Positions 10,103 through 14,205 of a DNA stretch of 64,000 nt are shown piece after piece. A program made the position numbers and the translations under genes. Under the pieces are notes generated by a model. It had not been told where the DNA came from and ran no database searches. It was given only the letters and a program-made list of their open reading frames with translations. Each line of letters begins with the position of its first letter. Positions within the stretch are counted from its first letter, which is position 1. The DNA comes from Candidatus Acetatifactor stercoripullorum (GTDB lineage: Bacteria > Bacillota > Clostridia > Lachnospirales > Lachnospiraceae). Location: the NCBI GenBank assembly GCA_019114005.1, contig DXGH01000010.1:6723-70722 (forward strand). Reading direction: 5' to 3'.

Positions 10103-10492
10103 CTACTTCTTCTCGTCCAGCACAATGGTGATGTGGCTCATTCTCTTTTCAATCCTGTAAGCTCTTCCCTGTGCCCTGGGTCTTACTCTCTTCATGGTAG
10201 GTCCCTTATTTGCATAGCACTCTGCAATATAAAGGTTCTCGGTATTCATGCCGTTATTGTTCTCTGCGTTGGCAATTGCCGACTGCAGCAGCTTCTTGAT
10301 CAGGCTGGAAGCATATCTGGGATTGTACTCCAGAATGGCAAGTGCGGTCTGCACATCCTTGCCTCTGATGGCATCTAATACGAAACAAGCTTTCTGCACG
10401 GACACTCTCGCGTAGGACAGCTTAGCTGAAGGTCTGGTGTCTTTTTTTGCGTTTCTCTCTCTCTTAATCTGGGATCTATGTCCTTTCGCCAT
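10103..10492 (-). CDS. rplV: 50S ribosomal protein L22 with basic N-terminal extension
   Basis: SAIANAENN, RPRAQGRA, SHITIV; start MAKGHRSQ after GGAGG. Confidence 0.98.
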   Translation of the reverse strand: MAKGHRSQIKRERNAKKDTRPSAKLSYARVSVQKACFVLDAIRGKDVQTALAILEYNPRYASSLIKKLLQSAIANAENNNGMNTENLYIAECYANKGPTMKRVRPRAQGRAYRIEKRMSHITIVLDEKK

Positions 10493-10517
10493 AGATATTG
10501 TCCTCCTTTCAAATAAA

Positions 10518-10607
10518 CGCATCTGCTATGGCTTCTCCCACAGTCAGACGCGGGGCTTTTCACCCCGGGAGAAGGCTTAAAAGCTTCTCCCGCAATTCCC
10601 TCCCGGG
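10518..10607 (-). ncRNA. Candidate structured cis-regulatory RNA between rpsS and rplV
   Basis: Three consecutive hairpins, with three competing GGGAG-containing strands complementary to one CUUCUCCCGGG tract (see findings). Confidence 0.5.
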
Positions 10608-10635
10608 TAATTGTACGTTTTTGTAGTATCGTTTT

Positions 10636-10920
10636 TTATCTCACTTTGGACTTCTTCTCGTCTTTGCCATGCCCGCGGTAGGTTCTGGTAGCAACAAACT
10701 CACCCAGCTTATGGCCCACCATATCCTCCGTTACATATACAGGAACGTGCTTTCTGCCATCGTGCACTGCAAATGTATGTCCCACGAAGGAAGGGAAAAT
10801 CGTAGAACGGCGAGACCAGGTCTTGATAACCTGCTTCTGTCCTGCCGCATTCAAAGCGTCCACTTTCTTTAACAGACTTGCATCTGCGAAAGGTCCTTTT
10901 TTCAGTGATCTTCTAGCCAT
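10636..10920 (-). CDS. rpsS: 30S ribosomal protein S19
   Basis: [24 protein letters not shown]. Confidence 0.99.
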
Positions 10921-11781: not shown

Positions 11782-11864
11782 TTTTGTATCTCCTTTTTTC
11801 TTAGATTTTTTGCGCGGTGATTTTCAAACCGCATACCTGAATCCCAGGAAAAGCTTTTGCTTCT

Positions 11865-13929: not shown

Positions 13930-14205
13930 AAAAAAAGTCGCCTCCTTTTCGCACTTTTGCAAGCGATTCAATCGCTTTGGTACGACAAGCGGTGACTGTA
14001 CACTCTCCCGTGTGTGTCCCAAGCCCTTACGCAACGCTTTCTTCTTCCAGGCCCGGACGCTACACGCCCTTTCTGCTCCTGCAGACTATCTTCATGGTAC
14101 AGTGACTTGTCGTCAGTTTTCTAACTTGACATTCGCTCCACGGAAAACCTCCCTGCCATTGCTGACAGACAGCAACCTCGCGCTTCACAGCTATCATGCC
14201 ACAGC
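13930..14205 (-). ncRNA. Long structured 5' leader of the S10 operon (probable r-leader)
   Basis: About 275 nt between promoter and rpsJ ATG, with hairpins such as UGUC-AA-GUUAG AAAA CUGAC-GACA and AAGCGAUU GA AUCGCUU. Confidence 0.6.

Follow-up and report, generated by a model that had tools for sequence, protein, structure and literature searches.

Why does the S10 operon of Candidatus Acetatifactor stercoripullorum carry 143 nt of strongly folding sequence between rpsS and rplV, and what might the RNA made from it do? The locus lies in a 64,000-nt stretch of contig DXGH01000010.1 (the window), taken from a 3.07-Mb genome that is called G000 here; other G and L numbers denote the genomes and loci compared with it. 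A preliminary description, made from the sequence of the window alone, had singled out this spacer as unusually long and as the seat of a switch-like RNA with several hairpins. Its coordinates, gene identities and length for the spacer agree with the positions of the open reading frames (rpsS at 10636-10920 on the minus strand; rplV starting at 10492 on the minus strand). The site is made up of the following parts:

10636..10920, minus strand: rpsS (uS19), the gene upstream of the spacer
10493..10635, minus strand: the whole rpsS-rplV spacer, 143 nt
10502..10514, minus strand: a short linker and the rplV Shine-Dalgarno sequence (SD), with GGAGG at 10502-10506
10103..10492, minus strand: rplV (uL22), the gene directly downstream and the proposed target

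The length is indeed out of the ordinary. In the other families of the order the spacer measures 12-51 nt, and at 73 of 129 distinct Lachnospiraceae loci it is no longer than 60 nt; among members of the genus, lengths from 13 to more than 240 nt occur. Elsewhere in the operon, the 83-nt rplW-rplB spacer (window 11782-11864, minus strand) is long for this operon and holds a small GCGGU/ACCGC hairpin.

Folded as RNA, the rpsS-rplV spacer reaches a minimum free energy (MFE) of -54.6 kcal/mol, against a mean of -34.1 kcal/mol for shuffled sequences (z = -5.23), and none of 200 shuffles is as stable. The three hairpins that had been named earlier (H1, H2 and H3) are all present in the MFE fold, together with a fourth, CAAUU-A-CCC GGGA GGG AAUUG. 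The rplV GGAGG is unpaired in this fold and lies 11 nt past the last helix, nearer than the distance of about 15 nt that had been given for the end of H3.

The spacers of genus-mates that share the core of this fold were compared in two ways. RNAalifold, run on a plain MAFFT alignment, predicted a three-way junction built from a closing helix (P1), a bulged hairpin (P2) and a long hairpin (P3), with compensatory changes at 12 of 25 pairs. Covariation statistics were taken from a model-based alignment of 42 sequences, 41 of them distinct, with 500 shuffles and slid-partner controls. Among the 41 distinct sequences, 93.7% of the cells are paired, against 81.4% in the shuffles and 23-50% with slid partners; both sides have changed at 15 of the 25 pairs (138 cells), and none of the 500 shuffles attains any structure measure of the alignment. 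The preliminary description had proposed an internal cis element in the operon mRNA, and the compensatory covariation, together with the conservation of the three-way junction in relatives, bears this out. In G000, the elements of the motif are located as follows, with scores from the motif covariance model (R1) and from a broader model (R2):

10512..10623, minus strand: full match to the covariance model, junction plus inserts (R1 67 bits, E 2.5e-15; R2 69.2 bits)
10614..10620, minus strand: 5′ strand of P1, AAACGUA, pairing with 10515-10521
10593..10613, minus strand: P2, the bulged hairpin CAAUU-A-CCC GGGA GGG AAUUG with a GNRA-type loop (pair probability of the tip >0.99)
10566..10592, minus strand: H1 hairpin in the variable region between P2 and P3, lineage-specific
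10552..10565, minus strand: H2 hairpin GGGG-UGAAAA-CCCC (P2a), optional and outside the core
10521..10549, minus strand: P3, the long hairpin first described as H3, with a 1-nt bulge (double changes at 7 of 11 pairs)
10515..10521, minus strand: 3′ strand of P1, UGCGUUU, within a nearly invariant UAGCAGAUGCGUU block

The three helices differ in how they are constrained. P1 is a 7-bp closing helix (consensus AACGCA/UGCGUU) in which four of seven pairs show double changes among the 41 distinct sequences. In G000 it competes with a 4-bp extension of P3, and a fold with P1 forced comes to -50.1 kcal/mol as against -54.6 kcal/mol; the comparative evidence nevertheless favours P1 over the extended P3 in this genome. 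The consensus tip of P2 is CCC-GRGA-GGG, and its lower stem covaries (pair types AU 17, GC 16 and CG 3). P3 has the consensus GUCUG-N-CUG...UAG-CAGAU, with a G.U pair that is invariant in 40 of the 40 distinct sequences having letters there, and the A between P3 and P1 is invariant too. Because the fold contains G.U pairs, one of them invariant, it can be assigned to the mRNA-sense strand. Conserved nucleotides cluster in the helices, at a bulge and at a G.U pair, the pattern that a protein-binding site would be expected to show. Compensatory changes in an RNA found at orthologous positions indicate selection on it, and the comparison supports the view that the P1-P2-P3 core is the conserved functional part of the spacer, a genuine cis element within the operon mRNA that is under selection.

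The stretch between P2 and P3 (J2/3) is anywhere between 6 and 108 nt long and can accommodate entire hairpins. It is 6-10 nt long and free of hairpins in 20 of the 42 aligned members, forms a single short hairpin, frequently with a GNRA-type loop, in about 14-16, and forms two in G000, L155 and L146. An H1-like hairpin occurs in only a few of the 42 (L155, L138 and perhaps L146). Given this variability among members, H1 and H2 are lineage-specific decorations, whereas H3 is the conserved arm; the earlier inventory was correct for H1 to H3 and had missed the closing helix P1 and the conserved hairpin P2.

Several smaller likenesses were seen in the same region. In H1 (window 10566-10592) the 5′ arm consists of SD-like purines and the 3′ arm of anti-SD-like pyrimidines, and the UUCUCC of H1 could pair with the rplV GGAGGA if the hairpin opened. 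The H1 stem of L155, GGAAGGA/UUCCUUCC, resembles a hairpin of domain III in Lachnospiraceae 23S rRNA (L159, about 337-362), a likeness found in this one member only. The H2 hairpin of G000, GGGG-UGAAAA-CCCC, resembles what we take to be the E. coli form of the domain III hairpin; this likeness was dropped because the Lachnospiraceae homologue reads GGAAGG-UGGGAA-UCCUUCC. The 8-mer GAUGCGUU, which also occurs in a 23S hairpin, is within chance and was given no weight.

The position of the motif is set from the side of rplV. In 48 of 51 distinct variants, the 3′ end of P1 is 20-40 nt from the rplV ATG, equivalent to 6-25 nt from GGAG, and three of the 51 have about 100 nt of extra structure between the motif and the SD. 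The distance from the rpsS stop codon to the tip of P2, by comparison, runs from 7 to 237 nt over the 51 variants. The motif is anchored to the rplV start, and may be so partly through shared ancestry. Pairing of the SD in the MFE folds is inconsistent among the variants.

Known families account for none of this. A permissive search of Rfam 15 at the site (E up to 10) gave no sense-orientation match over the motif at a meaningful E value, the best overlaps being one of 11.3 bits (E 6.5, sense) and one of 21.1 bits (E 0.94, antisense), both far below the gathering score. Seven simpler members of the motif likewise matched no Rfam family in a permissive search. The preliminary description had named no known r-leader at this place, and Rfam agrees with it. 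When the whole window was searched at the gathering threshold, no family appeared at the motif, and the matches were solely these two leaders:

14107..14196, minus strand: S10-Clostridia leader (RF03136), upstream of rpsJ, 82.7 bits
53277..53417, minus strand: L10 leader (RF00557), 58.3 bits

The S10-Clostridia leader stands at the start of the operon, so the operon already has a 5′ leader besides the internal motif. The two elements share the operon, the organism and the presumed functional class, whereas the S10-Clostridia leader lies at the operon 5′ end with a different fold, and the rplV motif does not match the RF03136 model. On the minus strand of the G000 spacer there are neither promoter-like -35/-10 hexamers nor a terminator-like site, and no U-tract follows P3 or P1.

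The range of the motif is narrow. Of 151 genomes of the genus (Acetatifactor-like Lachnospiraceae), 39 gave a single match to R1 and no second one; among the 76 high-quality genomes, the carriers number 26. Roughly one in four species of this gut-bacterial genus has the motif. Thirty-eight of the 39 copies lie between the rpsS stop codon and the rplV start, and the 39th, truncated by its contig, has rplV downstream. Neither R1 nor R2 found a credible copy in 150 other Lachnospiraceae genera; each model gave one weak match there (25 bits for R1 and 22.9 bits for R2), neither of them near rpsS or rplV and both at chance level. A pattern scan of metagenomes returned 28 matches, 26 of which are immediately upstream of rplV, and the remaining two score just 21.9 and 11.3 bits. 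In a tree built from about 2.4 kb of flanking ribosomal genes, which has modest resolution, the carriers fall into one clade and are interspersed with non-carriers, whose spacers are short, contain a remnant (L019) or contain other inserts. This arrangement implies one gain followed by several losses or replacements, and such losses within the clade mark the motif as dispensable. By comparison of genomes, the motif is a real, strongly supported and uncatalogued structured RNA that is specific to the rpsS-rplV spacer in part of one Lachnospiraceae genus.

As to function, we infer, with a probability of about 0.5, that the motif is an internal ribosomal-protein operator for rplV, of the r-leader type. 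This reading is based on the near-invariant helical nucleotides, the bulge and the invariant G.U pair, the tolerance of a variable arm and the anchoring at an r-protein start. The spacer would encode a cis-acting, protein-binding RNA operator within the S10 operon mRNA, and the operator would be the three-way junction 6-25 nt upstream of the rplV SD. One of the ribosomal proteins encoded downstream, once in excess over free rRNA, would bind the junction, and the bound complex would hinder loading of the 30S subunit at the rplV start. Translation of rplV would be lowered, and possibly that of coupled downstream genes too. The leading candidate for the ligand would be uL22, with uL24 and other downstream proteins possible. 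The features by which r-leaders are recognized, a structure supported by covariation and a sense-strand site upstream of rplV near its ribosome-binding site (RBS), are both found here. Counting against an operator are the dispensability of the motif and a fold that does not by itself sequester the SD consistently.

Operators inside ribosomal-protein operons are known from E. coli, in which S7 acts on the rpsL-rpsG intercistronic region and S8 acts at rplE in the spc operon. A candidate L2 leader of Alphaproteobacteria lies upstream of rplB-rpsS-rplV-rpsC (PMC7247131) and thus offers a precedent for an internal leader in the S10 operon, and a narrow taxonomic range is reported to be typical of r-leaders (PMC3616713). 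Like the S7, S8 and L2 leaders, the motif lies inside a ribosomal-protein operon directly upstream of an r-protein start site and has a conserved, covarying fold on the sense strand, and its narrow range is r-leader-like. Unlike them, it occupies the rpsS-rplV spacer, and neither its sequence nor its structure recurs in any of the three; its protein binding is predicted. To our knowledge, the rplV-proximal part of the S10 operon has no known regulator except the L4-responsive leader of Gammaproteobacteria, and we know of no RNA described as sensing uL22; our literature search found no description of an L22-responsive leader.

Four other readings have to be weighed against an operator. The preliminary description had cast the RNA as a switch between conformations, with CUUCUCCCGGG pairing now with one and now with another of three partners. 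Three strands complementary to CUUCUCCCGGG are present as sequence in G000, but the mutually exclusive folds or pseudoknot built on them find no support: the alternative folds come to -42.1 and -35.6 kcal/mol, which is 12.5 and 19 kcal/mol above the MFE, the alternative pairings have a pair probability of about 0, and the partner strands are not conserved, H1 being confined to few of the 42 members and the loop of H3 being variable. Because the alternative folds are energetically negligible and are built from unconserved parts, the switch is rejected as extremely improbable. A functionless remnant of a small inserted or mobile repeat, REP- or MITE-like, would suit a spacer that is a hot spot, where relatives have unrelated inserts or tandemly duplicated rpsS 3′ ends, and the motif resembles such repeats in being a stable insert of several hairpins that follows a stop codon and precedes an RBS. 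Unlike REP- or MITE-like repeats, however, it is single-copy, fixed at one site and subject to compensatory evolution. Neither BLAST nor the covariance model found a second copy of the spacer in its own genome, and each of 38 other genomes has one copy, at the same site. A dispersed repeat was rejected for this reason, and a remnant of one is highly improbable; of the earlier suggestion of a regulatory, processing or stability element or a small inserted repeat, the repeat falls away and an internal cis element is supported by structure and covariation.

An mRNA processing or stability element, acting as an RNase entry site or as a protective 5′ structure after cleavage, would set unequal amounts of the rpsJ-rpsS and rplV-onward transcripts with no r-protein feedback. 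The motif is very stable, lies inside a long polycistronic unit and is dispensable, all of which would fit, and the corresponding spacer of a sister subclade contains an unrelated insert carrying promoter-like hexamers, which suggests that this position is used to uncouple downstream expression. Yet a protective or cleavable hairpin needs no near-invariant helical nucleotides, no invariant G.U pair and no compensated junction, and the element is anchored to the rplV start, and processing or stability is rather unlikely. The motif might also serve another trans factor, either as a small-molecule riboswitch or as an RNA whose target is RNA polymerase or the ribosome, for example by processive antitermination or as a standby or decoy SD that uses the GGGAGGG of P2. 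A compact junction, a GNRA-type loop that could dock on P3 and the display of the SD-like GGGAGGG by P2 speak for such a role. The junction strands, however, are short or hypervariable (J2/3, 6-108 nt), unlike those of a ligand pocket, no terminator and no conserved SD-sequestering platform accompany them, and the range is limited to part of one genus. A riboswitch is disfavoured by the variable J2/3, the lack of a terminator and the lack of conserved SD sequestration, and a trans factor of any of these kinds is quite unlikely.

If the motif is an operator, its ligand can be sought by comparison with the binding sites of ribosomal proteins on rRNA, which r-leaders often, though not always, resemble. 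The comparison covered 16S and 23S rRNA from Lachnospiraceae together with fragments from the genus, the rRNA of G000 and of five motif-bearing metagenome-assembled genomes (MAGs) being unassembled. With filters off, the motif model gave one notable local match, of the P2 tip to CCCCGGGAGGGGA, which is the apical hairpin of 23S helix 24, and the full model was otherwise without a match in 16S or 23S rRNA. The P2 tip CCCGGGAGGG, CCC-GGGA-GGG, is identical to the tip of helix 24, CCCC-GGGA-GGGG, and the helix 24 tip has this identity in four of five genus genomes with a 23S fragment (one, G108, motif-bearing). One of the earliest proteins in 50S assembly is uL22. Within the earliest 50S scaffold it 'holds H2-4,24 together' (PMC12274283), and at the tunnel exit H24 lies alongside it (10.1101/312850). 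The tip shared by P2 and helix 24 makes uL22, the neighbour of helix 24 in the ribosome, the leading candidate ligand, which we put forward tentatively and not as a result. The match covers just 10 nt and is marginal, given that in 15 of 200 rRNA shuffles a 10-mer common to 10 or more members turned up, and the flanks and the strand order or topology (H2/H24) of helix 24 differ from those of P2. The short match and the different topology keep uL22 a candidate only. It is possible, although doubtful, that the motif would be the first uL22-responsive autoregulatory RNA, an S10-operon operator that captures free uL22 by copying the helix 24 hairpin of 23S rRNA and, in a clade of gut Lachnospiraceae, divides the long S10-spc transcript into two units whose translation is tuned independently.

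A natural uL22-binding RNA, if this is true, would be a compact model of the primary rRNA recognition by uL22, and it would be a further instance of r-protein feedback that evolved independently, here in gut bacteria that are abundant but uncultured; every carrier in this comparison is a MAG. With about 51 distinct sequences and strong covariation, the motif is suitable for submission to Rfam. The spacer is itself an evolutionary hot spot, with gain of the motif, its elaboration with additional hairpins, loss and replacement by a promoter-like insert, and so constitutes a natural experiment on the evolution of operon-internal control.

Other contents of this spacer were seen across the genus. 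In several genus-mates its 5′ part is filled by tandem copies of about 50 nt from the very end of rpsS; the one at L129:1579-1725 has a unit of 53 nt in 2.8 copies (96% matching), and a duplicated rpsS end is also present in the spacers of L132, L140, L141, L151, L156, L019, L056 and L103. These duplications point to a hot spot of recombination or slippage at the end of rpsS. An unrelated family of spacers, 151-197 nt long and with long hairpins, comprises L017:1583-1736 (G016), L044, L056, L066, L067 and L073. It carries the promoter-like hexamers TTGAAG and TATGAT, 17 nt apart and with a TG extension, and nests on the tree beside the motif-bearing L136 and L142, as if an internal promoter had replaced the motif. 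The motif-less L045 and L046 have a CUCC-GGGA-GGAG hairpin directly before the rplV SD, with a local P2-like match of 11.7 bits. A third unrelated structured insert, 178-189 nt long, occurs in L010 and L011 (G018 and G022); it has TTGACC and TATCTT separated by 17 nt, and its GGGAGAGC/GCUCUCCC hairpin resembles H1 of G000.
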